Position numbers and translations under genes: made by a program
Part shown: one piece after another, positions 100 to 18,209 of the stretch
How the letters are laid out: each line of letters begins with the position of its first letter
Position numbering within the stretch: position 1 is the stretch's first letter
DNA from: a virus
DNA length: 18,209 nucleotides
Reading direction: 5' to 3' (one strand)
Virus record (IMG/VR): IMGVR_UViG_3300045988_089479
Span: 1-18,209 of that record
Notes under the pieces: generated by a model
Database searches by the model: none
Told to the model about the DNA's origin: nothing
Seen by the model: only the letters and a program-made list of their open reading frames with translations

Positions 100-101
100 G
101 A

Positions 102-299: not shown

Positions 300-317
300 T
301 TAGGGAGGATGATTGAA

Positions 318-539: not shown

Positions 540-541
540 CC

Positions 542-745: not shown

Positions 746-748
746 GAC

Positions 749-1433: not shown

Positions 1434-1437
1434 ACAC

Positions 1438-1752: not shown

Positions 1753-1758
1753 TATAAA
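1750..1758 (+). promoter_or_regulatory. Extended -10-like box TGATATAAA
   Basis: The box overlaps the stop codon of the upstream gene and lies 56 nt before the SSB-like start. Motif match only. Confidence 0.3.
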
Positions 1759-1813
1759 AGATTTTAGGCGCAAGCCTGAAAACAAATAACAACAATCTAG
1801 GAAAGGTTAAACA

Positions 1814-2251: not shown

Positions 2252-2254
2252 ATT

Positions 2255-2263
2255 TGCTATAAT
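2255..2263 (+). promoter_or_regulatory. Extended -10-like box TGCTATAAT
   Basis: This is a perfect TGnTATAAT, 4 nt after the SSB stop codon and upstream of the TP/polymerase genes. Confidence 0.4.
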
Positions 2264-2282
2264 CGCAATGTGAGTTCACCAT

Positions 2283-2307
2283 GAGAGCACCCTTATTGGG
2301 TGCTCTC
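2283..2307 (+). terminator. Stem-loop (10-bp perfect stem, 5-nt loop); partial terminator or 5'-UTR stabiliser
   Basis: gagagcaccc (2283-2292), loop ttatt, gggtgctctc (2298-2307). It is followed by pyrimidine-rich tctatct, which is only a weak U-tract. It lies between the -10 box at 2255 and the RBS of the next gene. Confidence 0.4.
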
Positions 2308-2329
2308 TCTATCTGAAAGGACTGCAACC

Positions 2330-3391: not shown

Positions 3392-3418
3392 CGGACGGCA
3401 AACAAGGGAAGTTGTACC

Positions 3419-4873: not shown

Positions 4874-4874
4874 T
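4866..4874 (+). promoter_or_regulatory. Extended -10-like box TGCTATAAT overlapping the polymerase stop codon
   Basis: This is a perfect TGnTATAAT (TG 4866-4867, TATAAT 4869-4874). The predicted transcription start is around 4879-4881. Confidence 0.45.
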
Positions 4875-4879
4875 ATCTA

Positions 4880-5047
4880 TGTCTTGTGAGCGCCAATTTT
4901 TGACTGGGAGCGACACAGGTCGGACTACCACGGCTGAGAATGCCGCCGACGGTGATTTGCTGTTGTGGTAACAGTGCCCTACGAATTTCAATTTTGCGCT
5001 CTGATAGGACAGTCAGACCCTCGCGTGATTGCGGGGGTCATTTTATT
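4880..5047 (+). ncRNA. Candidate structured non-coding RNA of about 168 nt with a phi29 pRNA-like fold (hypothesis)
   Basis: The region is bounded by the -10 box and an intrinsic terminator, and it lacks an SD-led ORF. Hand-derived pairings follow. A terminal helix pairs 4880-4893 with 4996-5011 (14 bp with a 2-nt bulge). A second stem pairs 4914-4916 and 4919-4923 with 4946-4950 and 4952-4954. It carries a 7-nt one-sided bulge, ACUACCA (4924-4930), and a capping hairpin 4931-4945. A third hairpin spans 4960-4974 and has loop GUGGU (4965-4969), which is complementary to the bulge. Confidence 0.45.
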
Positions 5048-5049
5048 TT
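5016..5049 (+). terminator. Intrinsic terminator at the end of the early/replication region
   Basis: A 9-bp GC-rich stem pairs gaccctcgc (5016-5024) with gcgggggtc (5031-5039), including one G-U pair. The loop is 6 nt and is followed by attttatttt. Confidence 0.75.
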
Positions 5050-5059
5050 GCTTGCGGCA

Positions 5060-5068
5060 TGATATAAT
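5060..5068 (+). promoter_or_regulatory. Extended -10-like box TGATATAAT (candidate late promoter)
   Basis: This is a perfect TGnTATAAT just downstream of the terminator. It lies 36 nt before the scaffold start codon, whose RBS is TAAGGAG (5091-5097). Confidence 0.5.
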
Positions 5069-5103
5069 TTTGGTGAAAACACTACCAGCGTAAGGAGTTT
5101 TGC

Positions 5104-5391
5104 ATGGCAGACCCAAATACCGAAGGCGAGGAAACCACTACTCCGCCGCCGACCGAAGAGGAACAGCAGACGGAAACCGTGAACGATGAAGTCAAGCCGA
5201 AAGAGGAACAGGAACCGGAACCGAAGCAGGAGCCGGACGTTTCCGCACGCCTTGACAGCATCGAAAAGGAATTGGCCGCACTGAAAGCCATGATGGACAC
5301 GCTCGGCTACACCGAACCCACCCCCACCGACAACGACAACGATGGCGACGGCGACAACGACGGCGAGTCAATCGAAGATTTGTTCGACTAA
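5104..5391 (+). CDS. Putative scaffolding protein (95 aa, highly acidic)
   Basis: The gene lies immediately upstream of the capsid gene, as phi29 gp7 does, and is of similar size. It has a central helical segment (ARLDSIEKELAALKAMMDTL) flanked by E/D/P/T-rich tails. Confidence 0.6.
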   Translation: MADPNTEGEETTTPPPTEEEQQTETVNDEVKPKEEQEPEPKQEPDVSARLDSIEKELAALKAMMDTLGYTEPTPTDNDNDGDGDNDGESIEDLFD

Positions 5392-5411
5392 AATAGTTAG
5401 GAGATAATATA

Positions 5412-7124
5412 ATGTCCGATATCCGACCACTTGCAGGCAAAGGTGACGTTGAGATCTTCAACGCCGTCCGCTCCGCCACATCCCCCCAGTTTCAGGTGCG
5501 TATCCCGTCCGCGACTCAAGGCAATATCCGCAACGCGGTGGACACCATGCGCAGCTTTCCCTACTTGCGCGACGAGTTCACCGGCGTGCTAATCCAGCGT
5601 TTGATTGGACTGTATATCCAGCATGCGGATTGGGATGATCCGCTCAAGCTGATTGGTTCGCCGCGCACCCTCAAGCGTTACGGTAGCACTTATGAGCAGG
5701 CCGCAGTGGGACTCGTCAAAGCCCGCACCCGTAACTTCAACAAAGAGTACCTTGGGGGTGACGTGTATGGGCGTTACTCATTGCCGACTGCTTCGGTGTT
5801 CCACCCCCTAACTTTCGACCACTATTACCCCGTGACCATTCCGGAAGACGCCTTGCTGACGGCTTTCGACGGCGAAAGCGGCATGTCGGATTATATCAGC
5901 GAAATTATGAACGCTCCTATCCTCTCGGATAGAAACGACATGTATTTGATGAAGACGCAGACGTTCGCCGAATACGCTCGTAAGGGCGGTTTCTACCGCG
6001 TGCATACCCCCGACGTTGGCAAGGCCGACTCTGCCGAGGCCGACGCGAAGGGCCTGCTGCGACTCATTCAACAGGTGGCGAACGAACTCAAGGCGTCGCC
6101 AATGAGCGCCATGCCGCGCTATAACGCCATGAGCTGGGTGACTCCGTGGCGTGATTCGGAAGCCATTCTCTTCGCTACGCCGCAGGTTATCGCCGCACTC
6201 AACGTCGAAGCCCTCGCCGCCGCGTTCAACATCGATAAAGTGAACATTCCGTATCGCATTATCCCAATTCCGGAGGATATGTTCGGCATCGGTGGCGCGG
6301 CCGGTAAGGTTCAGGCCGTCCTGACCACGGAAGACTTCTTCTTCTGCTGGGACGAAATGCTTGAGACCACGAATTCCCCCGTGAACCCGATTGACGGAAC
6401 GCGCAACATCTTCTACAAGCACCGTGGGTCAATCACCCCTAACCCGTTCGCGAACGCGGTACTGTTTTGGACCGGTGAAGGTTCCAGCGAGTCCGTGACC
6501 CTGCCGGATACGCTCACCACCTCCACGCCTAAGTTCGAGCTGCGCGTGAGGAAGTATGGTCAGCTTGCCATCACTCCGCAGAACGTGTCGCGTGGTGACT
6601 TGGTGCAGGTGGTTTCCACCATCACGAGCGCCAACGAGGAGACGGCTACGTTCCAGCCGACAGGCATTAAGTATGCCGTCGAAGGCGCCACTTCTCAGTT
6701 CACCACCATTGACAATGACGGCATTCTGCGTTGCGGCCTTGACGAAACCGCCGAAACGCTGAAAGTCACCGCTCAGGCAACCTACATCAACCCGGCCACG
6801 CCTGAAATCGACCAGACGGTTTCCGCCGCACTGTCCGTGCCGGTGGTCGGCCAATGGCTCGGAGGCTGGAAAGCCGGAGCCATCGAGTCCATCGAGATTC
6901 AGGGCGAAAAGACTGTCAAGAACGGCGGTCATGTCGCACTCAAGGCGATTGCCACCAAGACGGACGGCAACACCGCGGACGTGACCAACCTCGCCATGTG
7001 GACTGTGGACAAAAACGCAACCATCACCCCCAACGGCGTGCTGACCGGGACCACTGCCGGTACCGCCAACGTTACTGCGAAATTCGCGGGAGCCACCGGA
7101 ACGGCAAAGGTCACCGTCGCATAG
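5412..7124 (+). CDS. Major capsid protein, phi29 gp8-like, with C-terminal Ig-like (BIG2-type) domains
   Basis: By-eye similarity to phi29 gp8 includes VEIFNAVRS ~ YDIVNAIRNS, LIQRLIGLY ~ LVDRIGLV, and FANAVLFWTG ~ FANAVAFVSG. The C-terminus contains two segments typical of Big_2 domains (YAVEGATSQFTTIDNDGILRCG...LKVTAQAT and WTVDKNATITPNGVLTGTTAGTANVTAKFAGATGTAKVTV). Confidence 0.9.
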   Translation: MSDIRPLAGKGDVEIFNAVRSATSPQFQVRIPSATQGNIRNAVDTMRSFPYLRDEFTGVLIQRLIGLYIQHADWDDPLKLIGSPRTLKRYGSTYEQAAVGLVKARTRNFNKEYLGGDVYGRYSLPTASVFHPLTFDHYYPVTIPEDALLTAFDGESGMSDYISEIMNAPILSDRNDMYLMKTQTFAEYARKGGFYRVHTPDVGKADSAEADAKGLLRLIQQVANELKASPMSAMPRYNAMSWVTPWRDSEAILFATPQVIAALNVEALAAAFNIDKVNIPYRIIPIPEDMFGIGGAAGKVQAVLTTEDFFFCWDEMLETTNSPVNPIDGTRNIFYKHRGSITPNPFANAVLFWTGEGSSESVTLPDTLTTSTPKFELRVRKYGQLAITPQNVSRGDLVQVVSTITSANEETATFQPTGIKYAVEGATSQFTTIDNDGILRCGLDETAETLKVTAQATYINPATPEIDQTVSAALSVPVVGQWLGGWKAGAIESIEIQGEKTVKNGGHVALKAIATKTDGNTADVTNLAMWTVDKNATITPNGVLTGTTAGTANVTAKFAGATGTAKVTVA

Positions 7125-7144
7125 TGACAATTGCCAACCGCTAG

Positions 7145-7185
7145 AATAGGTGTGGATAGACTTATATCCACACCTATTATTTTTT
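7145..7185 (+). terminator. Strong intrinsic terminator after the capsid gene
   Basis: A 14-bp perfect stem pairs aataggtgtggata (7145-7158) with tatccacacctatt (7165-7178). The loop is 6 nt and is followed by atttttt. AGGAGG and ATG 7197 follow immediately. Confidence 0.8.
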
Positions 7186-7196
7186 AGGAGGACCTT

Positions 7197-9425
7197 ATGA
7201 GCGCGAACGACCTGCCGATTAATTTCTCGTACGCCAAGTGGACGCCGAACACACGGTTCAAGCTTTGCAACGTACCGTGGGATATGGGATATAGGGATAT
7301 CGTAAAATGGGACAGGCAATCTCAAAAATCGTATTTCGACCGACTGGACGGCATCGAGTTCTCGGACTGCACTATGGCGAAATACGGCTTGCCGGTACGA
7401 CTGCCGATTCCGTTCGCACAAGCCAGTCAATATAACTACCTGATTGCCACGAATGACTACGACTTCGACACCCCACGTTCATGGTATTATTTTGTCCAGA
7501 CGTGCGATTACGTCAACGCGCACACCACACAACTCAATATCCAACTGGACGTATGGCAGAGTTTCCAACATGATATCCAACTCGGCAACGCCTATGTCGA
7601 ACGGGGGCATGTCGGAGTTGCGAACGAAAACGCGTGGAAAGACTATGGCCGCACCTATCTCGACCTACCCGAAGGACTGGACACAGGAAAGGCAATGGTA
7701 GTCACTGGGCAGCAATACAAGAGTTTGATTGGCGAAACGAACGGGTACACCACCTTCGGCGTGATCGTAGTGTCCACTACGAAACTGGACACTGACCCCG
7801 GCACGGCAAGCGCGCCGAAAACCACGTGCGCGGATGGCAGCGCATTTGAAAACCACACAAACGGCACAGCATTATACTATTTTTCGGACGCCTTGGACTT
7901 CCTTGCCGTCATGGGCGCGGGCGCGGAATACCCTTGGGTGACACAAGGTATTTGCGGCATCTACGCTATCCCCCAGCTTCCGGAAGCCCTTTTAAAAAAT
8001 CAGCAGAAGCCGGGCGTGTTCTTCAATCACATGATTGACTGGCGCGGCGACTGCTACCGGTTGGAAATACGCCACAATGACGCTAAAAGCCGCTACGCCG
8101 ACATCATCCATATCAAGGATTTCCGCGATAATTTCAAACTCCCCGAACGGTACAGGTATCTGCAAAAATTCCGCACCGCACCATATGCGGTACTGGAGTG
8201 CTCGTGCCTTAACGGGACTGTGATTACTTATAATCCCGAGCAGATTCCGAGTGCTGACTTGACTATCCGGGAGTCGTGGGACTACGCGCCGCCATCTCCG
8301 CGACTTAATTTTTATCCGCGCGGGTACAACGCAGGCGGTGTCAGCGAACAATCGCCGTTGCCGAACGATTCCGGATTGCCGATTGATTCCGGCGAAATGC
8401 TCAACGCGAGTTTCGGCATCACCGATTTTCCAACCTTCATGACAGTCAACAACGGTAGCGCCCTTGCCCTTGCCAATTCCGCGTATACGCGCCAATATGC
8501 CCAGCAGAGCGCGGATTGGAGTTTTCAGAAAACGCAGATGGGCATTAACAACGCCTACGCTCAAGCGCAACTTGGCACGCAGTATGCGAGTGCCCAGAAT
8601 CGACTTGGCACCTCGAATCGTAATGCCATGAATGCCATTAGCAACCAGAGCGCGCAAATGAGTACTGACCTGACACTGAAAAACCTTGGGTTTAACAATC
8701 AAATGTCACAGCTCAACACTATCGGCAGTGGCGTGGCGAACGCGGTTGGCTCCGCCGTCGCGGGTAATGTTGGCGGCGTGGCCGGTGCCATTGCTGGAAC
8801 CGCAATCGGCGCATGGACAAACCAGATGACCTATGATAACAACGTGTCAACCGCGAACCAGCAATTGGCGAACACGCAAACCACTAACAACGCAAGCACC
8901 TCACAGGCCAATGCCTACTCGCTTGCGCAAACCAATTTGTCCAACCAACAGACAATGCAGTTCGCGGATATGAACAAGCAACTTGCTCAGGCCACGGCGC
9001 AAGGCGATTATGAGAACACGATTGCGGGCATTAATGCGCAGGTGCAGCAGACTCAGACAGTACCCCCTACCACGTCGGGAGCGCTTGGTGGAGACGCATT
9101 TAACCTTGCCAACGGGCTAATTGGCGTGATGATACGCTTCCGGCAGATACCGCCCGCAGCCATGCGCTCCATTGGCGAAGTATGGCTAAGATACGGGTAT
9201 TACGTGCAACGCTTCATGAAGCTGCCGGAAAATCTCATGGCAATGACCAATTTCACCTACTGGAAACTTCATGAGCTGTACGTGCGTTCGAGCACGTGCC
9301 CCGAAGAGTATCGCTTGACCGTAAAAGGTATTTTTGAAAGTGGCGTTACCGTATGGACAGACCCTAATAAAATCGGTGTCACCGACTATGCGGACAACGT
9401 GCCGCTCAGCGGTATCGCATACTAA
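7197..9425 (+). CDS. Tail knob / distal tail tube protein, phi29 gp9-like (742 aa)
   Basis: The N-terminal region aligns by eye with phi29 gp9. FKLCNVPWDMGYRDIVKW matches RILADVPFSNDYKNTRWF. SWYYFVQTCDYVNAHTTQLNIQLDVWQSFQHDIQLGNAYVERGHV matches [46 protein letters not shown]. The gene lies just upstream of the portal gene, as in phi29. Confidence 0.85.
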   Translation: MSANDLPINFSYAKWTPNTRFKLCNVPWDMGYRDIVKWDRQSQKSYFDRLDGIEFSDCTMAKYGLPVRLPIPFAQASQYNYLIATNDYDFDTPRSWYYFVQTCDYVNAHTTQLNIQLDVWQSFQHDIQLGNAYVERGHVGVANENAWKDYGRTYLDLPEGLDTGKAMVVTGQQYKSLIGETNGYTTFGVIVVSTTKLDTDPGTASAPKTTCADGSAFENHTNGTALYYFSDALDFLAVMGAGAEYPWVTQGICGIYAIPQLPEALLKNQQKPGVFFNHMIDWRGDCYRLEIRHNDAKSRYADIIHIKDFRDNFKLPERYRYLQKFRTAPYAVLECSCLNGTVITYNPEQIPSADLTIRESWDYAPPSPRLNFYPRGYNAGGVSEQSPLPNDSGLPIDSGEMLNASFGITDFPTFMTVNNGSALALANSAYTRQYAQQSADWSFQKTQMGINNAYAQAQLGTQYASAQNRLGTSNRNAMNAISNQSAQMSTDLTLKNLGFNNQMSQLNTIGSGVANAVGSAVAGNVGGVAGAIAGTAIGAWTNQMTYDNNVSTANQQLANTQTTNNASTSQANAYSLAQTNLSNQQTMQFADMNKQLAQATAQGDYENTIAGINAQVQQTQTVPPTTSGALGGDAFNLANGLIGVMIRFRQIPPAAMRSIGEVWLRYGYYVQRFMKLPENLMAMTNFTYWKLHELYVRSSTCPEEYRLTVKGIFESGVTVWTDPNKIGVTDYADNVPLSGIAY

Positions 9426-9426
9426 T

Positions 9427-9465
9427 ATAATGGAGAGAGTATAACTACTCTCTCCATTATTTATT
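9427..9465 (+). terminator. Intercistronic stem-loop (15-bp perfect stem) with a weak T-tract
   Basis: ataatggagagagta (9427-9441) pairs with tactctctccattat (9446-9460). The loop is 4 nt and is followed by ttatt. Confidence 0.5.
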
Positions 9466-9480
9466 AGGATGGTGAACAAC

Positions 9481-10419
9481 ATGGGTAAGCGCAATAACGC
9501 ACGTAAGGCGACGCACTGGGATAATCAAAGCGTGCTTGGTAGCATGTGGGGCAATCTCAATCTGCCTGAAATGCGGCAGTCACTCAGAATCAATCAGTAC
9601 ATGAAGCTGATTGAAATGTTGGCGGTGTCCCGTTTCAGGTGGATCAATCTGCCGCCGTATATCGACGAAAGATATTTGGAGCTGACTCTGTTCGAAAACG
9701 GCCTTGCCCTCTTTTTCCCCGACAAACGCAAGGGAGTACACCGTTTTATGGTCACTTCCGGCAACATTGGCGGAGTGAACAATTACAATAATCCTACGCT
9801 TTTTCAGCCCGTCGCCACCAATTATTCACACCCGCAAATCGGGAGCAAGCAGTGTGTGCCGATTTGGGATAATCAGTTGCGTTGCACCATGATTGATGTC
9901 ATGTGGAATTACGCGACACGTTTGGCTATCGCGGACAGGGCGCTTGACGTCAACTTGGACAATATCAGCGTACCGCTGATTATCGCCACGTCCGAAACCA
10001 ACAAACTCACCGCCGAAAATCTAATGAAGGCGCGTGAAGACGGAGACCCCTACGTCTACACGTATGACAGCGCCGATATCACCGGCATGTTTCAGACGTT
10101 CCCCAACATGACGCCATTCCTCGCGGATAAAATCATCACCACCAAAACGCAGGTATGGAACGAACTCGTCAATTATCTCGGCATTGACAACAGTACGACG
10201 GAAAAGAAGGAGCGACTGCTTGAGTCGGAAGTGACGGCAGGTAATTCGCGTACGAACGTTTTCCGCCTGAGCTATCTCAAGGCACGTCAACAGGCGTGCG
10301 ACACCATTAACCGACTGTGGCCGCAAATGGCCGATTCAGGAAAACCAATTAGTATCGAATGGAACGACACCACCAGCGGTGGCTTGCTGGACGTCGATGG
10401 AAACAAGGAGGAAGAATAA
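9481..10419 (+). CDS. Portal / upper collar connector protein, phi29 gp10-like
   Basis: By-eye alignment to phi29 gp10 gives FRWINLPPYIDERYLELTLFENG ~ [23 protein letters not shown] and WNELVNYLGIDNSTTEKKERLLESEV ~ [26 protein letters not shown]. The track start at 9469 has no spaced SD. ATG 9481 follows AGGATGGTG (9466-9474). The start is uncertain by 12 nt. Confidence 0.9.
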   Translation: MGKRNNARKATHWDNQSVLGSMWGNLNLPEMRQSLRINQYMKLIEMLAVSRFRWINLPPYIDERYLELTLFENGLALFFPDKRKGVHRFMVTSGNIGGVNNYNNPTLFQPVATNYSHPQIGSKQCVPIWDNQLRCTMIDVMWNYATRLAIADRALDVNLDNISVPLIIATSETNKLTAENLMKAREDGDPYVYTYDSADITGMFQTFPNMTPFLADKIITTKTQVWNELVNYLGIDNSTTEKKERLLESEVTAGNSRTNVFRLSYLKARQQACDTINRLWPQMADSGKPISIEWNDTTSGGLLDVDGNKEEE

Positions 10420-11231
10420 TGGTGCAGGACTTGAGCATGTACTCCATCAAAGACAGCATGGCGGATTGTACGCTGACGCTTGGCAATCTGATCGCACGCG
10501 GTTTCGACACGGACGAAAAACTGCACTTGAGTCCGCAATATTACCCGATTTTCGATGAAAATTATAGGGCGAAACTTAACGAGAAAATCGTGGCACACTA
10601 CGCGTTGCGTGAGATTGGTTCGGAAACGCCGCAGATGTTCGTCTTTTACTTGGGGCGTACCATGCGTGAGCAGATGGACTATTTCAACCAACTGTATTTG
10701 TCCGCGCAACGCAAGTTCGACCCTTTTATCACTTCGGACATTCGGCAGGAAATGGACTCGACCAGCACGAACGAGTCCAGCGGAAAATCGAGCGGCACAC
10801 AGTCGAACGAGTCCACGGCGAACAGCACGTCCGACACTAAGGCCGACAATTCGTCAATGACTTTTAATTCGGAGTTTCCGCAGACTCGTATCGATGATTT
10901 TAGGCAATACGCCACCAGCGCGTCGCAAACCGACTCGACCGGCAACACGCATACAAGCACGCAACAGGACAGCAGCACCACCGCGTCCAGTACCAGCAAC
11001 ACCGATTTTTCACATTCGTCTGACAAAGGCAACAGCGTGTCGCATACGCTCGGCACTAGTGGCTCGCAATCCCAGCTTTTGCTTGACTGGCGTAATACCA
11101 TGCTCAACATTGATATGATGGTTGTAAACTCACTCGAAGAACTCTTTCTTGGTATGTGGGGCAGTGGCGACAATATGACCAACGTGCCGCAGCTTTACAG
11201 CACGAGTCTCGCTTACAACTTAGGTCACTAG
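10419..11231 (+). CDS. Lower collar protein, phi29 gp11-like (270 aa)
   Basis: The gene follows the portal gene, as in phi29. ATG 10419 overlaps the portal stop codon (TAATG) and follows AAGGAGG (10405-10411). The motif YPIFDENYRAKLNEKIVAHYALREIGSETPQMF resembles the conserved N-terminal region I recall for gp11-type proteins. The central part is S/T-rich low complexity. The track start at 10359 would overlap the portal gene by 60 nt. Confidence 0.7.
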   Translation: MVQDLSMYSIKDSMADCTLTLGNLIARGFDTDEKLHLSPQYYPIFDENYRAKLNEKIVAHYALREIGSETPQMFVFYLGRTMREQMDYFNQLYLSAQRKFDPFITSDIRQEMDSTSTNESSGKSSGTQSNESTANSTSDTKADNSSMTFNSEFPQTRIDDFRQYATSASQTDSTGNTHTSTQQDSSTTASSTSNTDFSHSSDKGNSVSHTLGTSGSQSQLLLDWRNTMLNIDMMVVNSLEELFLGMWGSGDNMTNVPQLYSTSLAYNLGH

Positions 11232-11263
11232 GGTATACTTGACATTGACGGATTGGAGGATAT

Positions 11264-11863
11264 ATGGACGGACTTAACATGTGCGCCGCCCCCTTGGACA
11301 TTGACCCACGGCAACGCTATTTCACGACGGTGCAGCCTTTTAGCTACCGCGATACGTTGACGGTGCTCGGTTACGTGCAGGAGGTGGCCGAACATGTGGA
11401 CGAATTGCGCGAACAGCTAGACAATCTCGCCAAAGACGAGAACGCGGACGTCGAAGCCATCAAACAGCTGATAGCCGGTTTTAACGAGCAGTTCGAGCGC
11501 ATCAATAAAACCTTGGATGACTTGGAAAAGCAGGTTGGACAATACGAAGACTCGGCTCTTACGTATAATCCGACGCGCGGCAAGTATGAAGACTCGAAAA
11601 ACACGAACCGCGACATGTACCGTGAATTGGCCGTGTTCGGCGCACGAGTCAACCAAATGGCACAACTATCCACGCCAATGGCCGCCGCGCACACATGCCT
11701 TGAGTTCGCAGTGCTCGGCAACAAAACCATTTTCCACAACGACGAGCCACGCATCACACCACGCGACGTGCACGTGGATGACGGCGAACCCGTCAACCCT
11801 CTGTCGGTCGAAAATCTCGCCAATGGCGTCGTGGTCAACAATTTTATGAAAACCGCTCAGTAA
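11264..11863 (+). CDS. Putative tail/appendage structural protein with a coiled-coil segment (199 aa)
   Basis: The RBS is GGAGGA (11254-11259). A heptad-like helical stretch is present (HVDELREQLDNLAKDENADVEAIKQLIAGFNEQFERINKTLDDLEKQV). The gene lies between the collar and appendage genes. I recognise no family. Confidence 0.4.
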   Translation: MDGLNMCAAPLDIDPRQRYFTTVQPFSYRDTLTVLGYVQEVAEHVDELREQLDNLAKDENADVEAIKQLIAGFNEQFERINKTLDDLEKQVGQYEDSALTYNPTRGKYEDSKNTNRDMYRELAVFGARVNQMAQLSTPMAAAHTCLEFAVLGNKTIFHNDEPRITPRDVHVDDGEPVNPLSVENLANGVVVNNFMKTAQ

Positions 11864-11878
11864 TATAAGGAGAGACAA

Positions 11879-12232
11879 ATGGTACAGAAGACACCGAATT
11901 ATAATTTGGAGAAATATAGCTCGACCGATGCGCCGAATCTTGAAGGCTCGTACAATCGTTCGATGGATATTCTTGATACGACGCTGAAAACGCAGTCGGA
12001 TAGGATTGACGCCATTCCCACCCCAGAATCTTTGCCGGAAGGTTTGGGGGCGTTCGCCACCGCTCTTGGACTGAGCGCCGCGAACGCCGAAGCGCTCGGC
12101 ACCGCCCTTAATCATTTTCTTAATCGTGTTCCAGCAACCGGTGGCGGACAGTACACCGTCAAAAACCTTAATGACACGAAGGTCACTGCGGAAGGTCTGC
12201 CGTTCGTTTCCACCACCGCTTCAGGAGATTGA
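11879..12232 (+). CDS. Putative appendage/fibre protein (117 aa) carrying the shared N-terminal module
   Basis: The RBS is AAGGAGAG. Residues 7-36 (NYNLEKYSSTDAPNLEGSYNRSMDILDTTL) align without gaps to the N-termini of the next two genes. Confidence 0.6.
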   Translation: MVQKTPNYNLEKYSSTDAPNLEGSYNRSMDILDTTLKTQSDRIDAIPTPESLPEGLGAFATALGLSAANAEALGTALNHFLNRVPATGGGQYTVKNLNDTKVTAEGLPFVSTTASGD

Positions 12233-12237
12233 CGGTC

Positions 12238-12420
12238 ATGACGAACAGTCAGCAGACCACGCCCGTGGACTCCGCCGCATACGATGTGACGCGACATTGG
12301 GGGTTGCCCCTCTACAATGACGCGACACCAATGGACTTGCGCGACGGCTACAATCGCGCCATGCGCATGATTGACCAGATTTTAACCCAACTCAACACGC
12401 AAATCAGGGAAAAGGACTGA
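12238..12420 (+). CDS. Small protein (60 aa) made up almost entirely of the shared N-terminal module
   Basis: The track ORF is 12229..12420 with a TTG start. ATG 12238 lies 10 nt after AGGAG (12223-12227). Residues 20-49 (HWGLPLYNDATPMDLRDGYNRAMRMIDQIL) are identical to the 644-aa protein's module at 17 of 30 positions. Confidence 0.55.
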   Translation: MTNSQQTTPVDSAAYDVTRHWGLPLYNDATPMDLRDGYNRAMRMIDQILTQLNTQIREKD

Positions 12421-12424
12421 CAAA

Positions 12425-14359
12425 ATGGCTACCGTATACGCAAAAACAGACAATTACGGTCTAAACTTGTATGGCGACAATGACCCCGCCGATCTACGCG
12501 ACGGTTACAACGTTTCCATGCGTACCATTGATGATACACTCGAAAAGCACCTCAACCGCATCGAGGGCGTAGAGTCGCGTGAGACTCACGACGAGGAAGT
12601 GGTGAAGGCGCTGATTGGCGACAATACGGTTGACAGCGCCACCGCATCGAAAAACAAGTGGGATAAATCAATTTCGGACGCCGCGGCCGCAACCTCCGCC
12701 GCCGTAGCCGCCGCAAGCAAAGCAGACGGCAACACGGCGATTCTCGCCGCGTTGGGAGCAGGCTCAACCACTGCCGCCGCCGCAAATAAGTCGAAGTGGG
12801 ATAAAGCGGGGGCGGACGCGACAACCGCCATACGCAAGGCCGACAACAACACGGCAATCCTCACCGCACTGGGGGCAGGCTCGACCACTGCCGCCGCCGC
12901 GCAAAAAACCAAGCTGGACAACACCGCCACCAAGGTCAACGAACTTGAGAACGCCCGTGTGGACAGCAAGCTATCCTCTCATTTCATCATCCACGCGCAT
13001 CGTGGTTCCTACCGGTTCCCGGAAAACACCATGGAAGGCATCATGTGGGCGGTACGTCGCGGGTATGTTCCGGAAGTCGATGTGCAGCTCACGTCGGACG
13101 GCGTGCCGGTAATCCTGCATGACACGTCAACCGCTCGCACCATGACAGGCTCCGCCGCCAATGTATCCTCTATCACATATGCGGACTTCATGGGCCGTGA
13201 GGTCAAGGCGAAAGTGCATGGTGGTAATACCGGCAGGCCGGTGAGCATGGAGCAGGTACTTCAAGCAGTGGGCGATAGTCCGGTTGATTTCGAAATCAAG
13301 TCGCTGACCAACGCCACCACGGACGCAATGCTGGAATTGCTGCGAAAGTATAACGCCACCGCAATCCATGAATTGACGTCGTTCAGTTGGGAACAGTGTG
13401 TCCGCGCCGTTGAGGGTGGAGCGAAATACGTGTCCTACACGTGGGATACGGACGCAATGCCGCACTCTTGGGCTGATATGAGGCATGCCGGTATTTTCTG
13501 TGGCAACCCGCGCGAAGACAAACTCACTTCCTCGATGGTCAGTGCCGCGCATTTGGCTGGGATCAAGATTAATCCGTGGCTTATCAATGACCCAGTGGCC
13601 TATGAGCGTGTTACCACGCTTGGAGTTGATGGCATCACCTCCAATTGGCCGGATTACTCTAGCGGACAGTTGGAGCGCAACTTCACCCCGTTCAGCACCG
13701 GTCAGAACGTTTTCATGCGCCCCAACTATTCTCCACAAGGCGGTGTGGTATCAAAGGAAATACCGGAAGAGGTTAGGGCGAAAAGCTCATATCTTGCACC
13801 GGGCGGGCTGTTCCAACTCGGAGATGCGGACTCTCAAATGTTGGTGGAATTGGTTGAATGTGGCACGGTGACGCTGCCGGTCAGTATCGACCTTGAGGGC
13901 TTCGAGTCACGAGTTCAGATTGGCGAAAACGGCGAAACGAAGAACATTGCAGTAATCGCAGTGAAGGAGTCAACCCCTATCGGCCAATTCAACGACGTGG
14001 CAACGGCTGGACAGGTTGGTATCATTGCGGGCGTTCGACGTAACGGCGCTACATTCGGCGGTTTCTATCAGGACAATGTGACAACAGTTGCTTTCGATAA
14101 CACTGAACCGGTAACACCGTCCGTGCCAAACGACAAAGCCGTAGGTGTGCATGCGTCCTTCGTTCTCGATCGTGACCATGCTCGAATCATTTGGGCATAT
14201 TCGAATGGACAATCCGGTGATGTGACCACAGGCAACAACAAAAGGGTTACGTTGCCGGACACTAATAAATACCGTCTGTTCGTACGTCTCAATCGCAATT
14301 TTAAAAGCGCGTGGAAAATCAGGGTACGTCCCACCGACGGTTACCTCTACGAAAGCTGA
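12425..14359 (+). CDS. Tail appendage / receptor-binding protein with a glycerophosphodiester phosphodiesterase (GDPD) domain (644 aa)
   Basis: The GDPD signature residues are present in order: HAHRG (H192, R193), PENT (E200), PEVDV (E217, D219), ILHD (H232) and a C-terminal GVDGITSNWPD. The protein also has the N-terminal shared module (aa 10-39), an Ala-rich repeated stalk (aa 75-160) and a C-terminal region of about 230 aa of unknown fold. Confidence 0.85.
   Translation: MATVYAKTDNYGLNLYGDNDPADLRDGYNVSMRTIDDTLEKHLNRIEGVESRETHDEEVVKALIGDNTVDSATASKNKWDKSISDAAAATSAAVAAASKADGNTAILAALGAGSTTAAAANKSKWDKAGADATTAIRKADNNTAILTALGAGSTTAAAAQKTKLDNTATKVNELENARVDSKLSSHFIIHAHRGSYRFPENTMEGIMWAVRRGYVPEVDVQLTSDGVPVILHDTSTARTMTGSAANVSSITYADFMGREVKAKVHGGNTGRPVSMEQVLQAVGDSPVDFEIKSLTNATTDAMLELLRKYNATAIHELTSFSWEQCVRAVEGGAKYVSYTWDTDAMPHSWADMRHAGIFCGNPREDKLTSSMVSAAHLAGIKINPWLINDPVAYERVTTLGVDGITSNWPDYSSGQLERNFTPFSTGQNVFMRPNYSPQGGVVSKEIPEEVRAKSSYLAPGGLFQLGDADSQMLVELVECGTVTLPVSIDLEGFESRVQIGENGETKNIAVIAVKESTPIGQFNDVATAGQVGIIAGVRRNGATFGGFYQDNVTTVAFDNTEPVTPSVPNDKAVGVHASFVLDRDHARIIWAYSNGQSGDVTTGNNKRVTLPDTNKYRLFVRLNRNFKSAWKIRVRPTDGYLYES
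12647..12901 (+). repeat. In-frame tandem duplication (period about 117 nt / 39 aa) in the stalk of the GDPD appendage gene
   Basis: KADGNTAILAALGAGSTTAAAANKSKWDK (from nt 12719) recurs as KADNNTAILTALGAGSTTAAAAQKTKLDN (from nt 12836). A KNKWDK element precedes the first copy. Confidence 0.8.
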
Positions 14360-14378
14360 CAGACTGTCCTAAGCAATG

Positions 14379-14406
14379 GCCATATCCTCTATAATGAGGA
14401 TATGGC
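14379..14406 (+). promoter_or_regulatory. 11-bp perfect inverted repeat flanking a TATAAT hexamer and covering the next start codon
   Basis: gccatatcctc (14379-14389), TATAAT (14390-14395), gaggatatggc (14396-14406). ATG 14402 begins 6 nt after the hexamer, which is leaderless geometry. The GAGGA is only 1 nt from the ATG, too close to act as an SD. Confidence 0.5.
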
Positions 14407-15625
14407 TATTACTTTTGACGAGTGGGTAAAACAAACGCAAGGCCGCTACTGGGATATGGACGGCGCGTATGGCGCCCAATGTTGGGACTTGTGGGCCAAG
14501 TACTGTATGGACTTGTACGGCGCGTCGGTGTCCGATTGCATCACGCCAACCGGATACGCGGAAGGGAACTACACAAGATTCCCCACAAACGCGAAAATGT
14601 CGCAAATTTTCGAAAAGAAACCTGCCGACTACAGCCCCGTGAAGGGGGATGTGGCGTTTTGGAATTTCTCAAGCCAACACACCGGCTCACACGTCTCTAT
14701 CGTGATGGAGGACGGCGTGCATAACGGCCGTATCACAGTGTTGTCGCAAAACCCTAACCCAGCCCAACGCATGACGTTCGACATGACGGCGTTTTTGGGA
14801 TATCTGCATCCAAAAGCACTGGGCGAAGGGGGTGGTACAACATCGACTGAGAAGAATCCGACTGGGGACAACAGTCATGGTTCCGCCGACTCCGCACGTG
14901 GTGGCGCGTGGATCCATTGGCAAGGCGACAACCTCTACTTGCACGAGAGTGACAACGCGGGAGCGCGGACACGTGTCTTTTACAGGACAACGGCAAACAA
15001 TTTTTCCGAAAAAGCGTCACAACCACAGCCGTCCGGCGACAATGGTCAGGCACACCCGTCCGTATCATTGTCGGCGGAAAACTCGTACACACTGTATGTG
15101 GTCGGCGCGGTAGAGGCCGGTTTGAGATGGGACGCGGTAGAGGCGGCCAACCTGCAAGGCATTGGTATCGCGCAATGGAGCTTCGAGCGCCGACTTCAAG
15201 TGTTGAACGCGATGAAGTCGGCCGACCCAGCCGGATATGCCGCATTTAAAACCGCCGCGCCTGAAATCGCGGCACTCATGGAGTCGGGCGGCACGTTCAA
15301 ACGTTCGCTCACCTCAGCGGAAGCGGCCGCATTCCAAACATGGGCGAGACGGAGTGAGTCACGTGATGGCCAACGCAAGCAGTTCGCCGCCGACTACGCG
15401 GAATACCCCAAAGAGTACAGTGATACTAAAATGCAGATTCTTTGGGTGACCGCATACCACCAATCGCCCGCGAACGCGCTCAAGGTACCGAAGGCGTCGA
15501 ACCTAGCACAATTAAAAGGCAATATTCTATCAACGTTCCCGTTCGGCCCGTATACGACGCGATACAATCAGGCGTATTCGTTATTGAGTGTTTGGGATGG
15601 CAAGTCTAATCCACCCGCGTTCTAA
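14402..15625 (+). CDS. Virion-associated peptidoglycan hydrolase: N-terminal CHAP domain plus a C-terminal lysozyme-like domain (functional analogue of phi29 gp13)
   Basis: The CHAP catalytic pattern is present: DGAYGAQCWDL (Cys27), GSHVSIV (His97), SQNPN. The C-terminal region contains GAVEAG...GIGIAQWS, which resembles the GNMQSES...GFGLVQWT pattern of the phi29 gp13 N-terminal lysozyme-like domain. The gene sits at the end of the tail gene block. Confidence 0.75.
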   Translation: MAITFDEWVKQTQGRYWDMDGAYGAQCWDLWAKYCMDLYGASVSDCITPTGYAEGNYTRFPTNAKMSQIFEKKPADYSPVKGDVAFWNFSSQHTGSHVSIVMEDGVHNGRITVLSQNPNPAQRMTFDMTAFLGYLHPKALGEGGGTTSTEKNPTGDNSHGSADSARGGAWIHWQGDNLYLHESDNAGARTRVFYRTTANNFSEKASQPQPSGDNGQAHPSVSLSAENSYTLYVVGAVEAGLRWDAVEAANLQGIGIAQWSFERRLQVLNAMKSADPAGYAAFKTAAPEIAALMESGGTFKRSLTSAEAAAFQTWARRSESRDGQRKQFAADYAEYPKEYSDTKMQILWVTAYHQSPANALKVPKASNLAQLKGNILSTFPFGPYTTRYNQAYSLLSVWDGKSNPPAF

Positions 15626-15629
15626 AAGT

Positions 15630-15638
15630 GTGGTATAC
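15630..15638 (+). promoter_or_regulatory. Extended -10-like box TGGTATACT
   Basis: The box matches TGnTATACT and lies 5 nt after the upstream stop codon. The 9-mer GGTATACTT also occurs at 11232-11240, just after the lower-collar stop codon. Confidence 0.35.
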
Positions 15639-15699
15639 TTAATAGTGGCAGTGGTTGTATGATGACCTTTCCCCTTGAACGGCTGCCAATGATAGGTTG

Positions 15700-15743
15700 G
15701 TGGAGGGCGTGCGAGTCATGGCGCACGCCCTCCACTAGTTTTT
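15700..15743 (+). terminator. Strong intrinsic terminator immediately upstream of the packaging ATPase RBS
   Basis: A 14-bp perfect GC-rich stem pairs gtggagggcgtgcg (15700-15713) with cgcacgccctccac (15722-15735). The loop is 8 nt and is followed by tagttttt. AGGAGGG (15744-15750) and ATG 15759 come next. Confidence 0.75.
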
Positions 15744-15758
15744 AGGAGGGTTGCAAGC

Positions 15759-16826
15759 ATGACATTGCAAACGCTTAACGAGAGCGATTATTACGATTTG
15801 CACAATCTGTTGACGCGAAACGCGCCGTGGAACTTCATAATCGGCGCACGCGGACTAGGCAAAACGTTCGCCGCGAAACGGTATGGTATCAAAGAGTACA
15901 TCAAACACGGCCACGAATTCATTTATCTTCGGCGCACCGACGTGGAACAACATCGCAAGGAGACCTTCTTCAAGGATATCCAAGAGTTCTTCCCCTTATA
16001 TGAATTTCGTGTCAATGGCGAAAAAGGGCAGATTCATAAGACGTCGTGGGACGAGAAGGATTGGCGGACATGTTGCTATTTCGTCGCGCTCTCGCAAGCG
16101 GGCGGACTCAAGTCAGTGGCCTATCCAAAAGTACACTTGATTATCTTTGACGAGATTTTCCCCGACAACCTACGCTTTCTAAGCAATGAAGTGAACTCGT
16201 TCAGCGAGTTCTACAATACCGTTGATCGTTGGCAGGATAGGACAAAAGTACTATTCCTTTCAAACGCAGTGCAAAAGGCTAATCCATATTTTGCAAAATA
16301 TCGGCTGGACATTGGTGCACAGCAAACCAACCGGCAACAATACAAACTCTATTGCGGCGGGTTTATCTGTTTGGAATTGGCTGACTATGGTGGCTTCTCG
16401 GCAAAAGTAGCACAATCCAAGTTCGGCAGGTTTCTTGAAAAGTACGATGGCGACTACGCGGATTATGCGATCCGCAACAAATTCCGCGACGAGTCGGACA
16501 CTTTGATATCGCCAATTCCTAGCGACGGCGAGCTGTCTTACATTTTGGACACTACCGATTACGCACGTTTTGGAATATGGGTTTCCATATCCGAGCGCGA
16601 CGGACATGTTTCACAATATGTTTCACGACGTATTCCAAAAGACAACAATCGCCCCGTCTATACGCTCGACCCGAACCACGTTGACGAAAAAACATGGTTC
16701 GTCAAAAAATCAGATGATATAATACGGCGACTCACAACCGGCTACCGGCTTGGTAAAATAAGATTCGATGACTCTCAGGTCAAAGCCGATTTTGGCTTGA
16801 TTATAGGCAAGCTGTTAGGCAAGTAG
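15759..16826 (+). CDS. DNA encapsidation (packaging) ATPase, phi29 gp16-like
   Basis: The Walker A region NFIIGARGLGKTFA matches phi29 NFVIGARGIGKSYA. FIYLRR matches FIYVRR. The Walker B region LIIFDEIF matches TIVFDEF. LSNAVQKANPYF matches LSNAVSVVNPYF. The size is similar (355 versus 332 aa). Confidence 0.92.
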   Translation: MTLQTLNESDYYDLHNLLTRNAPWNFIIGARGLGKTFAAKRYGIKEYIKHGHEFIYLRRTDVEQHRKETFFKDIQEFFPLYEFRVNGEKGQIHKTSWDEKDWRTCCYFVALSQAGGLKSVAYPKVHLIIFDEIFPDNLRFLSNEVNSFSEFYNTVDRWQDRTKVLFLSNAVQKANPYFAKYRLDIGAQQTNRQQYKLYCGGFICLELADYGGFSAKVAQSKFGRFLEKYDGDYADYAIRNKFRDESDTLISPIPSDGELSYILDTTDYARFGIWVSISERDGHVSQYVSRRIPKDNNRPVYTLDPNHVDEKTWFVKKSDDIIRRLTTGYRLGKIRFDDSQVKADFGLIIGKLLGK

Positions 16827-16845
16827 GAAGGAAGGAACAGCAACA

Positions 16846-17208
16846 ATGACAACAGCGGACGTATGGTGCGCTATCGCAGTCACATTCTTCATTGTCACCG
16901 ACTATGTGACAGGCGTGGCGAAAGCCATCATGCAGAATAATTTAAATTCAAAAAAAATGCGGGAGGGTCTAGGCCACAAGTTCGCCTACTTCATCCTCGT
17001 ACTGACAGCATGGTTCGTCGACGAAATAAATCTACATGTCGACTTAGGACTGCCGGTGTCCGTATTCATCTTCACCGTTGGCGGAATATGCATAATCGAG
17101 CTTACATCGATTTTGGAAAACGTCACAGCGATCAATCCGGAATTAGCGGACTCGCCATTCATGTCGATATTTTCCCAAAACACGCCTAACGCGAAGCACA
17201 GCAAATGA
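16846..17208 (+). CDS. Holin (phage_holin_4-type, about 3 TM segments)
   Basis: TDYVTGVAKAIMQNNLNSKKMREGLGHKFAYFILVL matches the D-Y-x-T-G...S-K-K...G-x-x-K signature of the holin family that includes TcdE-like holins. The protein has three hydrophobic segments and lies upstream of the endolysin. Confidence 0.8.
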   Translation: MTTADVWCAIAVTFFIVTDYVTGVAKAIMQNNLNSKKMREGLGHKFAYFILVLTAWFVDEINLHVDLGLPVSVFIFTVGGICIIELTSILENVTAINPELADSPFMSIFSQNTPNAKHSK

Positions 17209-17381
17209 ACACTATCAGCTCATATTGGATACTGAGCGGGCTTACGACAATTGGAATTGCGATGTGGTTCGCATCCTTCACCGTCCAATATCCGCAGTTC
17301 CACCGTGCCGCATTCATCTTCATGCTCACCACGGCAACGCCGTGGGTGACGGCAACATTATATCTGACACAAACAATGTAA
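17205..17381 (+). CDS. Small two-TM membrane protein (58 aa), absent from the ORF track; possible holin partner or antiholin
   Basis: My translation is MNTISSYWILSGLTTIGIAMWFASFTVQYPQFHRAAFIFMLTTATPWVTATLYLTQTM, ending at TAA 17379-17381. Its ATG overlaps the holin stop codon (ATGA). It ends 10 nt before the endolysin start and fills the only gap in the lysis cassette. Confidence 0.55.
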   Translation: MNTISSYWILSGLTTIGIAMWFASFTVQYPQFHRAAFIFMLTTATPWVTATLYLTQTM

Positions 17382-17391
17382 GGAGCGAAAA

Positions 17392-18057
17392 ATGAATATC
17401 CAAGAGTGGATTAACTCAGTCAACGGCAAAACCATCGACATGGACGGCGCGTACGGCGGACAATGCTGGGACTTATGGAGCAGCTACGCGCGCAACGTGT
17501 ATGACATTCCAGCCGCCGACACCAACACCGTAGACGGATATGCGGCAAGCGTGTACACTGCACGATATGACCGCTCTCGCGCATTGCAAAACGCTTTCAC
17601 CAAAGAGTCAGCCAATTACACGCCAACCTACGGTGACGTGGCATTCTGGAAACGCAAGGGCATGAACCACGTCGCCATCGTAGTGCGAGACAATGGCAAT
17701 GGCACTCTACAGACTATCAGTCAAAACCCCAACCGCGCCGGATATGTCAATATCAGCAAAAGAGGTATCATAGGCTACTTTCATCCCCGAGACAACAACG
17801 GCGGCAACGGTAATACCAACACCGTCGCGATCACCGCGCGCACCTATCGCGTCAACGTGCCGGCGCTCAACGTGCGCGAGGCACCCAGTACTCACAGTCA
17901 GATCGTGGCGCAATACCACAAAGGACAGGCTGTCAACCTCATGAGTGGCGGCACAATCGCAGACGGATTCATTTGGGCACACTATATCGGTGGCTCAGGC
18001 AAGACCCGATATGTCGCACTAAAAGCAGTGGATGGTACAACGCAATACCTTGTATGA
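17392..18057 (+). CDS. Endolysin: N-terminal CHAP domain plus a C-terminal SH3b-like cell-wall-binding domain
   Basis: The CHAP pattern is present: DGAYGGQCWDL (Cys25), NHVAIVV (His93), SQNPN. A Gly/Asn linker follows. The C-terminal segment YRVNVPALNVREAPSTHSQIVAQYHKGQAVNL...FIWAHY is typical of SH3_3/SH3b domains. The RBS is AAGGAG (17380-17385). Confidence 0.88.
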   Translation: MNIQEWINSVNGKTIDMDGAYGGQCWDLWSSYARNVYDIPAADTNTVDGYAASVYTARYDRSRALQNAFTKESANYTPTYGDVAFWKRKGMNHVAIVVRDNGNGTLQTISQNPNRAGYVNISKRGIIGYFHPRDNNGGNGNTNTVAITARTYRVNVPALNVREAPSTHSQIVAQYHKGQAVNLMSGGTIADGFIWAHYIGGSGKTRYVALKAVDGTTQYLV

Positions 18058-18067
18058 CACATGAGTA

Positions 18068-18107
18068 AAAGCCCCTAGGCCGTCAGCCTAGGGGCTTTAC
18101 TTTTTGT
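18068..18107. terminator. Bidirectional intrinsic terminator between the endolysin and the right ITR
   Basis: A 13-bp perfect stem pairs aaagcccctaggc (18068-18080) with gcctaggggcttt (18086-18098), with a 5-nt loop. On the + strand it is followed by actttttgt. On the - strand the same hairpin is followed by ttttact. Confidence 0.85.
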
Positions 18108-18110
18108 ATA

Positions 18111-18209
18111 CTATATCATACCAAAAACAACAACAATACCGATAACGCATGCGCAAATAATAAGCACCGAATCGAACATATCACTCACCCTTCCTATTTG
18201 CATGATAGT
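18111..18209. repeat. Right inverted terminal repeat (99 bp)
   Basis: This is the exact reverse complement of 1-99. Confidence 0.97.

Follow-up and report, generated by a model that had tools for sequence, protein, structure and literature searches.

The 18,209-bp stretch of viral DNA analysed here (IMG/VR record IMGVR_UViG_3300045988_089479, positions 1 to 18,209; "the window" below means this whole stretch) is the complete genome of a phi29-like podophage of gut Bifidobacterium. Between its lower collar gene and its tail-lysin gene, the slot that gp12, the appendage gene, has in phi29, lie three consecutive genes for proteins of 117, 60 and 644 amino acids that begin with one homologous module. 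We call these proteins mid, stub and fibre. They belong to ancient, distinct paralogue families, and we tentatively favour, with slightly less than even confidence, a reading in which paralogous neck anchors make separate, co-operating neck components, the stub and the miniature fibre being obligate structural partners. The features of the three genes are:

11879-12232, plus strand: mid protein, 117 amino acids, with the module, one fibre-type stalk repeat (LPEGLGAFATALGLSAANAEALGTALNHFLNR) and a conserved C-terminal element
11888-12040, plus strand: putative anchor module of the mid protein, residues 4-54 (BLASTP against the fibre; alignments A1 and A3), with the 30-residue block at 11897-11986
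12149-12220, plus strand: C-terminal element of the mid protein, residues 91-114, QYTVKNLNDTKVTAEGLPFVSTTA (alignment A2)
12238-12420, plus strand: stub or 'small' protein, 60 amino acids, with a variable lead of 15-19 residues, the module and about 3 more heptads of helix
12271-12390, plus strand: putative anchor module of the stub, residues 12-51 (BLASTP against the fibre), with the 30-residue block at 12295-12384
12425-14359, plus strand: fibre or receptor-binding protein, 644 amino acids, with the module, a repeated α-helical stalk, a glycerophosphodiester phosphodiesterase (GDPD) domain and a C-terminal domain; matches the PHROG tail fibre and phosphodiesterase families
12428-12595, plus strand: putative anchor module of the fibre, residues 2-57 (BLASTP, A1), with the 30-residue block at 12452-12541
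12590-12940, plus strand: fibre stalk, about 2.5 copies of a 39-residue repeat (KADxNTAILxALGAGSTTAAAAxKxKWDKA) found by self-comparison
12998-13654, plus strand: GDPD domain of the fibre, residues 192-410 (PF03009, E = 4.8e-23)
13655-14356, plus strand: C-terminal ~230 residues of the fibre, with no Pfam or PDB sequence match

The 30-residue blocks align without gaps and are identical at 9 of 30 positions between mid and stub, 13 of 30 between mid and fibre and 18 of 30 between stub and fibre. A preliminary description of this DNA had given the three blocks with exact translations and coordinates and had counted 17 of 30 for the last pair, one too few. BLASTP comparisons of the full proteins (stub and fibre, E = 1e-10, 20/40 identical; mid and fibre, E = 2e-8, 19/51; mid and stub, E = 3e-4, 10/32) therefore place the similarity of the modules far beyond chance, and they lengthen the homology to 40-51 residues from the 30 first noted. 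In alignment A1 it runs from a Thr about four residues before the block to ~16 residues further into the helix; in fibre numbering A1 extends from about Thr8 to Ile46. This Thr is invariant in A1 and at least 90% conserved over the 14 phage lineages of alignment A3, which brings together 29 modules without gaps; N29 does not vary there, and conservation at T8, L13, L24 and D36 reaches at least 90%. No near-invariant residue of the anchor loop is missing from the stub, which continues for only 9 residues past the part that aligns with the fibre (residues 12-51). Downstream of the module the three proteins had been called unrelated. BLAST indeed finds no similarity among the window proteins past this point, but in at least one other lineage, L091, the mid protein and its fibre have shaft repeats in common.

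All three genes are real: they have Shine-Dalgarno sites, a fixed length in more than 220 clusters and ratios of nonsynonymous to synonymous substitution (dN/dS) of 0.06-0.20. The fibre has such a site, that of the mid gene (AAGGAGAG) lies 4 nucleotides upstream of the start, and the stub has AGGAG 9 nucleotides upstream of the ATG at 12238. This ATG is conserved, and a TTG at 12229 that would give 63 amino acids is missing in many relatives. By the Nei-Gojobori method on about 50 distinct sequences, with dS near saturation, dN/dS is 0.06 for the stub, 0.07 for the first 69 codons of the fibre and 0.20 for the mid protein. Homologues of the stub fall into 228 clusters at 90% identity, all of 60-65 amino acids and mostly on ~18-kb contigs, and those of the mid protein into 268 clusters, almost all of exactly 117 amino acids. 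The preliminary description had named a lack of conservation of the small open reading frames as grounds for rejecting its proposal; both are instead conserved in relatives, in more than 220 clusters each, at fixed length and under purifying selection.

A profile search with the module, which the same description had suggested for gauging its spread, was exhaustive and detects it, at E ≤ 1e-3, in 696 representatives. Of the best 150 of these 696 matches, every one except P0348 has the module at or near residue 1, and the lengths of the proteins are bimodal, at about 50-130 and 380-680 amino acids. Among cultured phages only Bifidobacterium podophages have it: in a tblastn search of 50,697 phage records the fibre N-terminus matches these podophages and otherwise gives chance matches. 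The same search with protein P0360 returns, with E ≥ 0.1 throughout, the same podophages plus a single faecal 'Bacteriophage sp.' record that is unannotated, and with protein p204 of L093 it returns one unrelated record only. A word-index search with the first 60 residues of the fibre yields 12 short fragments, among them the chimera P0131 described below, and no full-length fibres.

The three families recur in several combinations. We ran a hidden Markov model (HMM) of the module on 80 IMG/VR loci that had been retrieved with the stub. Clade A (the window and its relatives, 52 loci) always has a mid protein of 117 amino acids, a stub of 60 and a fibre; clade B (BP1, BD811P, about 28 loci) has a stub of 54-58 amino acids and a fibre only. 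The trio is also present in phage BadAztec1 (gp08, 79 amino acids; gp07, 55; gp06, 449, with P0347 a close homologue) and in unrelated metagenomic lineages (L084, 108, ~50 and 499 amino acids, the second uncalled; L091, 89, 57 and 604; L096, 113, 53 and 416). A stub and a fibre occur in L094, L095, L097 and L098, a mid protein and a fibre in L087 and L088, and three module proteins of 157, 121 and 438 amino acids in L093. Each of the 7 loci retrieved via the fibre that include upstream sequence has at least one short module protein directly upstream (7/7), and stub homologues of 49-60 amino acids immediately precede the fibre gene in BP1, BD811P2, BadAztec1, L084, L091 and L094-L098.

Several of these loci depart from the simple arrangement. 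The 157-amino acid protein of L093 (4137-4610), upstream of the 121-amino acid mid-type protein and the fibre, has the module followed by a β-rich globular C-terminal domain. Within clade B, two fibre genes with the same anchor are found in L073 (4159-7408; 582 and 485 amino acids) and in L082 (4171-6478), and decayed remnants of a second stub-fibre cassette are found in L056 (5692-6331), together with a truncated second fibre, and in L061 (5658-5969). From this comparison of loci, stub and fibre genes seem to come and go together as one cassette. At L084 2932-3093 a stub of ~50 amino acids with a clear module was missed by the gene finder of the source. The stub family is probably under-annotated in metagenomic phage genomes.

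When one phage per lineage is compared over the 30 residues, orthologous modules share 17.1 (fibre), 15.3 (stub) or 14.4 (mid) positions of 30, against 11.4-13.7 of 30 for paralogous pairs. Orthologues resemble each other more than paralogues do, and the duplication is therefore older than the divergence of the lineages. Each family also has its own signature. A typical stub reads LPLY…DLRDGYN-x-AM…ID-x-x-[IL]-H-x-L, and the mid protein has DL-x-TGYN, without the Arg-Asp pair. Stub and fibre modules of the same phage are identical at 15.6 of 30 positions versus 13.7 of 30 between different phages (permutation p = 0.001, not corrected for phylogeny), and the Arg-Asp pair is gained or lost jointly in the two; the mid module does not track either the fibre or the stub within a phage. 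The co-variation of stub and fibre could come from a shared binding surface or from mutual contact. P0131 (53 amino acids, on a 17.9-kb contig) is a natural chimera in which a fibre-type first half is joined at DLRDGYN to a C-terminal helix of the clade B stub type, and it shows that recombination or gene conversion takes place between paralogous modules.

The fibre has the layout first described for it, with a repeated stalk, a GDPD enzyme and a C-terminal region. The stalk repeat is evident at the protein level (best offset 39 residues, 28/96 identical), and the DNA of the stalk contains no tandem repeat. The GDPD domain scores 83 bits against a Pfam cut-off of 23.6, is matched by the NCBIfam GDPD family too and has PDB matches down to E = 6.5e-12, among them the phage GP-PDE protein 9euf. 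The C-terminal ~230 residues presumably form a binding or β-rich domain. Across more than 70 loci of both clades, the N-terminal ~55 amino acids are 70-98% conserved and the C-termini differ; the module begins at residues 2-10 of the fibre in all loci inspected, and fibre length varies from 326 to 651 amino acids across clades A and B with different distal domains. Long module proteins carry GDPD, GDSL/SGNH, pectate-lyase-like or NosD β-helix domains, and the distal enzymatic domains of the fibre are freely exchanged. Judged by its family membership, the GDPD head plausibly acts on glycerol-phosphate teichoic acids.

The mid protein has more structure than the Ala/Gly-rich tail that had been ascribed to it. 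Its module is followed by the stalk repeat and then by the conserved C-terminal element of about 22-24 residues, for which the family consensus is TVxxLxxxKVTAxGxxYIP. Longer members of the family, such as P0308, insert fibre-type stalk repeats, and the C-terminal element persists in 81-amino acid members without the middle region (A2). The mid protein is therefore a miniature fibre.

The gene upstream of the trio encodes a coiled-coil protein of 199 amino acids, p199, which may be related to the mid protein at its C-terminus. Its features are:

11264-11863, plus strand: p199 coiled-coil protein, 199 amino acids, first gene of the four-gene cassette p199, mid, stub, fibre
11765-11860, plus strand: C-terminal extension of p199, residues ~168-199, from the comparison of lineages

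Every lineage inspected has a homologue or analogue of p199, of 172-215 amino acids, between the lower collar gene and the module genes, and the family libraries (Pfam, PHROGs, NCBIfam) return coiled-coil noise only for p199. The C-terminal extension (~25-30 residues) is confined to phages with a mid protein (the window clade, L084, L096, L087, L088 and L093), and p199 stops just short of it where the mid protein is missing (BP1 and clade B, L094, L097). The motif of the extension resembles the C-terminal element of the mid protein (LSVENLANGVVVNNF versus YTVKNLNDTKVTAEGLPFV; in L088, for example, LDVDSINDAQVDGNGYVYVP versus LTVSKLSSAKVTAGGTVYIP), and an HMM built on the mid element selects, among 1,298 open reading frames, the C-termini of 5 of 6 extended p199-type proteins. 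This pattern is suggestive of a two-ended mid protein that is related to the fibre and stub through one end and to p199 through the other. We consider p199 a candidate partner of the module proteins.

AlphaFold2 models of the mid protein and the stub agree on a short β-hairpin, a loop and a long helix. In the mid monomer (mean predicted local distance difference test score, pLDDT, 74.5), β-strands at residues 3-4 and 11-12 and a loop precede a helix at 22-45 (pLDDT 83-95), which is followed by helices at 56-62 and 67-82 and a C-terminal β-hairpin at 100-110 (pLDDT 59-69). The stub monomer (mean pLDDT 79.6) has a disordered lead, a β-bridge at 16-17/24-25, a loop and a helix at 32-59 (pLDDT 85-93). 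Read from the sequence, the helix has a regular 3-4 hydrophobic spacing (M-I-L-L-I) in all three proteins, and in several distant stubs it is a textbook coiled coil. Module, stub and mid protein have no credible match in Pfam, PHROGs or NCBIfam. A match of the stub to VasL (E = 6e-4) falls under the cut-off and was dismissed as helix noise. Searches of the PDB with the fibre, A1, A3 and p199 return GDPD enzymes or noise only, with nothing at or below E = 0.2 for the A1 and A3 profiles, and Foldseek finds no match better than E = 5 for the mid and stub models.

The closest known architecture is that of the receptor-binding proteins of the Staphylococcus picoviruses P68 (gp17) and Andhra (gp15), which have an N-terminal loop of 36-38 residues followed by a coiled coil of 34-38 residues (PMC9710869). 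In Andhra, the loop contacts the stem and clip of the portal and the collar domain of the stem protein, and the three N-termini of one trimer differ in conformation, which permits sideways attachment; the loop is conserved between P68 and Andhra receptor-binding proteins that are otherwise unrelated (PMC9710869). The window proteins resemble these in coming from a phi29-like podophage, in a predicted layout with an extreme N-terminal segment before a coiled coil (in P68 and Andhra the segment is non-helical and about 30-38 residues long) and in a constant anchor that bears a variable head. The helix would start at residue 22 in the mid protein and 32 in the stub according to the monomer models, compared with a loop of ~30-38 residues before the trimeric coiled coil of P68 and Andhra. 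Unlike the three paralogues found here, P68 and Andhra each have one anchor-bearing protein; neither a 60-amino acid anchor-only protein nor a 117-amino acid mini-fibre is reported for them, and Andhra uses an unrelated 'RBP anchor' of 403 amino acids, gp6. A docking role for the shared block, as had been proposed, seems the most reasonable reading because the N-terminal position and the predicted loop-helix shape match those of P68 and Andhra; the distal domains are also exchangeable in a similar way.

The homology is solid, and the mechanism that we infer from it would work as follows. The module of ~45 residues is predicted to comprise a short β-hairpin, a loop with the conserved motif T-x-N-Y-x-L-x-L-Y…D-L-R-D-G-Y-N and the three opening heptads of a coiled coil. 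By analogy to P68 and Andhra it would be the neck anchor and the starting point of trimerisation, and it would fix trimeric appendage proteins to the ring formed by the portal and lower collar, which are the presumed docking platform. The long fibre would present an exchangeable enzymatic head, in the window a GDPD that may cut glycerol-phosphate polymers such as teichoic acid. The mid protein could be a mini-fibre or whisker whose C-terminal hairpin element probably links to p199. The stub, an anchor with a short coiled coil, might partner the fibre anchor at neighbouring or equivalent anchor sites or by packing on the base of the fibre, and it would complete the anchor ring without a bulky head. 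Co-operating, non-redundant roles are suggested because the proteins are retained jointly across deeply diverged phages.

Several points weigh against these separate, co-operating neck components. The models are of monomers and say nothing on oligomeric state or partners. There is no alignable motif in the N-terminus of P68 gp17, and the PDB profiles and Foldseek are empty as to P68 or Andhra, which leaves an analogy of architecture only. The likeness between the C-termini of p199 and the mid protein is weak for each protein taken singly (E = 0.05-7), and the co-variation of stub and fibre could reflect gene conversion between neighbours and not a shared binding site. A search of the literature found no proteomics or cryo-electron microscopy of these phages. 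Portal and collar docking, the trimeric state, virion presence and the division of labour among the three proteins are inferences.

A doubtful but serious alternative is that the paralogous modules, instead of forming separate homotrimers, assemble as one mixed bundle at the base of each fibre, with the short chains adapting the three-fold fibre to the twelve-fold collar. The stub helices could lie in grooves of the fibre coiled coil, for example, or a mixed anchor could form from stub, mid and fibre. The strict adjacency of the genes fits co-translation and assembly, the stub module tracks the fibre module in each phage down to the Arg-Asp pair, and every fibre inspected with upstream sequence has a short partner. 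A mid protein with two modules, each in common with a different neighbour, is likewise adaptor-like, and the three N-termini of a single Andhra trimer are non-equivalent (PMC9710869). However, the set of partners varies (stub only, mid only, both, or three), which is ill-suited to one fixed hetero-complex, and it is physically awkward for a mixed coiled coil to shed chains from one end to the other. The coiled coils of the long fibres P0365, P0387 and P0334 are moreover headed by stub-like and mid-like modules alike, so that each type can support a fibre alone. We judge unlikely the stricter version, in which the anchor-only stub and the two-ended mid protein must co-fold with the fibre N-terminus, solving the three-fold to twelve-fold mismatch and tying the fibre to p199. 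To our knowledge, an obligate hetero-oligomeric hub for fibre attachment has not been seen in any tailed phage.

It is quite unlikely that the stub, and perhaps the mid protein, is an assembly factor missing from the finished particle, one that in the cytoplasm attaches for a time to the fibre anchor, or imitates it, and thereby nucleates trimerisation, prevents premature aggregation or sets the number of fibres on the collar. Such a role would suit a very small protein that lacks a distal domain, has a canonical amphipathic helix, is encoded next to the fibre and co-varies with its anchor. But the stub keeps the complete anchor loop, as if it docked like the fibre, and is as strictly conserved as the structural N-terminus of the fibre (dN/dS 0.06 versus 0.07). 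The genes of known fibre chaperones (Tfa, gp38 and gp57-like) follow the fibre gene, and these chaperones are related to the fibre C-terminus or work on it, whereas the stub and mid genes lie upstream and their products share the fibre N-terminus, and neither protein matches a chaperone family in Pfam, PHROG or NCBIfam.

The preliminary description had also raised alternative appendages that compete for one collar site, which would give variable mixtures in which the short proteins are dispensable variants or decoys. A common anchor in three proteins and the two full-length fibres with the same anchor in L073 and L082 are compatible with this idea. Redundant competitors would often be lost, however, and here ancient, distinct paralogues have been kept together across deeply diverged phages, each with a fixed length and its own signature in lineages that have about 50% module identity, and no inspected locus has a fibre without a short partner; we therefore regard competition as very unlikely. 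The reading of the small open reading frames as non-functional remnants of fibre-cassette recombination, or as upstream frames for translational coupling, could appeal to recombination at the module (chimera P0131, and the decayed stub remnant with a truncated fibre in L056) and to stub genes that go uncalled, as in L084, but it is effectively refuted by dN/dS values of 0.06-0.20 with saturated dS, by length and motif kept at the protein level across lineages with unrelated DNA and by good ribosome-binding sites on both frames.

Three other systems resemble parts of the cassette. Stand-alone anchor domains exist elsewhere, as in SP6, K1-5 and K1E-like podophages, whose gp37-type adaptor is a homologue of just the N-terminal domain of gp17, the T7 fibre. 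Like the stub, this adaptor corresponds to the virion-binding N-terminal domain of a fibre and is encoded beside tailspike genes. However, the SP6 and K1-5 tailspikes have no anchor and hang on the adaptor, whereas the fibre here keeps a complete, highly conserved anchor of its own. The adaptor is also several times larger than 60 amino acids and belongs to another fold family and phage group, and Pfam and PHROGs are silent on any homology of the stub to it.

The predicted design of the mid protein, and more loosely that of p199, recalls the T4 collar whisker fibritin (wac), in which a trimeric coiled coil joins an anchor for the neck at the N-terminus to a small β-hairpin element at the C-terminus. 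Fibritin helps the long tail fibres and holds them in position but is not itself host-binding, and a helper of this kind is what we propose for the mid protein. Both mid and p199 are much shorter than fibritin and come from another type of phage, and the C-terminal element is a putative counterpart of the foldon only. No significant homology to fibritin is found, the single hit being PHROG 1056 'fibritin neck whisker' for p199 (E = 0.06). In two-fibre adenoviruses, fibres of unequal length use one short N-terminal docking motif on the penton base; both are full fibres with knobs, with no anchor-only member, and neither the sequences nor the viruses are related to those discussed here.

It is an established principle that modular phage fibres bear conserved anchors at their N-termini. 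What is new is the maintenance of three paralogous proteins with a putative anchor as a cassette that includes an anchor-only member of 50-60 residues and a two-ended mini-fibre, and its occurrence in a large, essentially uncharacterised branch of phi29-like phages. In the literature searched we found neither an account of these proteins nor any virion proteomics or structure of BP1, BD811P or BadAztec. The preliminary description had known of no equivalent of the 60-amino acid anchor-only protein in phi29-like phages, and we too found none in the literature.

The phi29-like phages are the textbook minimal tailed viruses, with a neck thought to need only a portal, a lower collar and one appendage protein. 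The recurring trio points to an undescribed way of building a phage neck: a whole phi29-like branch has a conserved four-gene neck cassette in which three members have one putative anchor in common. The members of this branch are hundreds of genomes from gut metagenomes and the only lytic Bifidobacterium podophages in culture. That an anchor-only protein of 50-60 residues is kept at dN/dS ≈ 0.06 implies that fibre mounting has a structural or assembly requirement not recognised so far, and the constant anchor and its mandatory small partners would be boundaries to respect when receptor-binding heads are swapped to retarget Bifidobacterium phages. The stub gene is easily missed by gene callers, and its homologues are labelled 'hypothetical protein' in GenBank; the family can be annotated at once.

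The remaining genes of the window are consistent with this placement of the cassette. The principal ones are:

5412-7124, plus strand: Phi29-type major capsid protein (Pfam/PHROG; Pfam Phi29_MCP, E = 2.3e-56)
7197-9425, plus strand: gp9-like tail knob (Pfam/PHROG; Pfam phi29_gp9_C, E = 2.6e-7)
9469-10419, plus strand: portal, the upper collar connector (Pfam Phage_connector, E = 6.5e-40)
10419-11231, plus strand: lower collar, adaptor Ad4 (PHROG 3225 Ad4, E = 1.5e-28; PHROG 5472 lower collar; BP1 annotation)
14402-15625, plus strand: CHAP tail lysin, 407 amino acids (Pfam/PHROG)
17392-18057, plus strand: CHAP and SH3-like endolysin, 221 amino acids, after the holin (Pfam/PHROG)

The ends of the genome (1-99 and 18111-18209) are exact terminal inverted repeats of 99 bp, and it is therefore a complete linear, presumably protein-primed, phi29-like genome. 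A gp16-type packaging ATPase is also encoded (Pfam/PHROG scans), and the capsid, knob, connector, collar, lysin, ATPase, holin and endolysin genes are all on the plus strand. Among cultured phages, Bifidobacterium phages BP1 and BD811P1-3 are its nearest relatives, with about 77-78% nucleotide identity in conserved parts, and the Bifidobacterium asteroides phage BadAztec is more distant.

Genes in the cassette are strictly adjacent, with overlaps of 4 nucleotides or gaps of 1-12 nucleotides, and no promoter or terminator that would split the trio stands above shuffle expectation. Fusion of the reading frames by readthrough or frameshifting was considered and rejected: mid and fibre are in the same frame with two stops between them, and the stub is in another frame. 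On the minus strand, three open reading frames (149, 67 and 61 amino acids; 11666-12297) overlap the mid and stub genes. They are most likely spurious because the genes on the plus strand are under strong purifying selection.

The lower collar frame as listed begins at 10359 and overlaps the portal gene by 61 nucleotides; a start at 10419 gives 270 amino acids, as in BP1 gp9. A long Ser/Thr/Asn-rich insert of low complexity occupies about residues 130-240 of the 290-amino acid reading. The 407-amino acid CHAP protein has the position of the phi29 tail lysin gp13. Its N-terminal ~30 residues and those of the 221-amino acid CHAP protein are visibly alike (WDMDGAYGAQCWDLW versus IDMDGAYGGQCWDLW).

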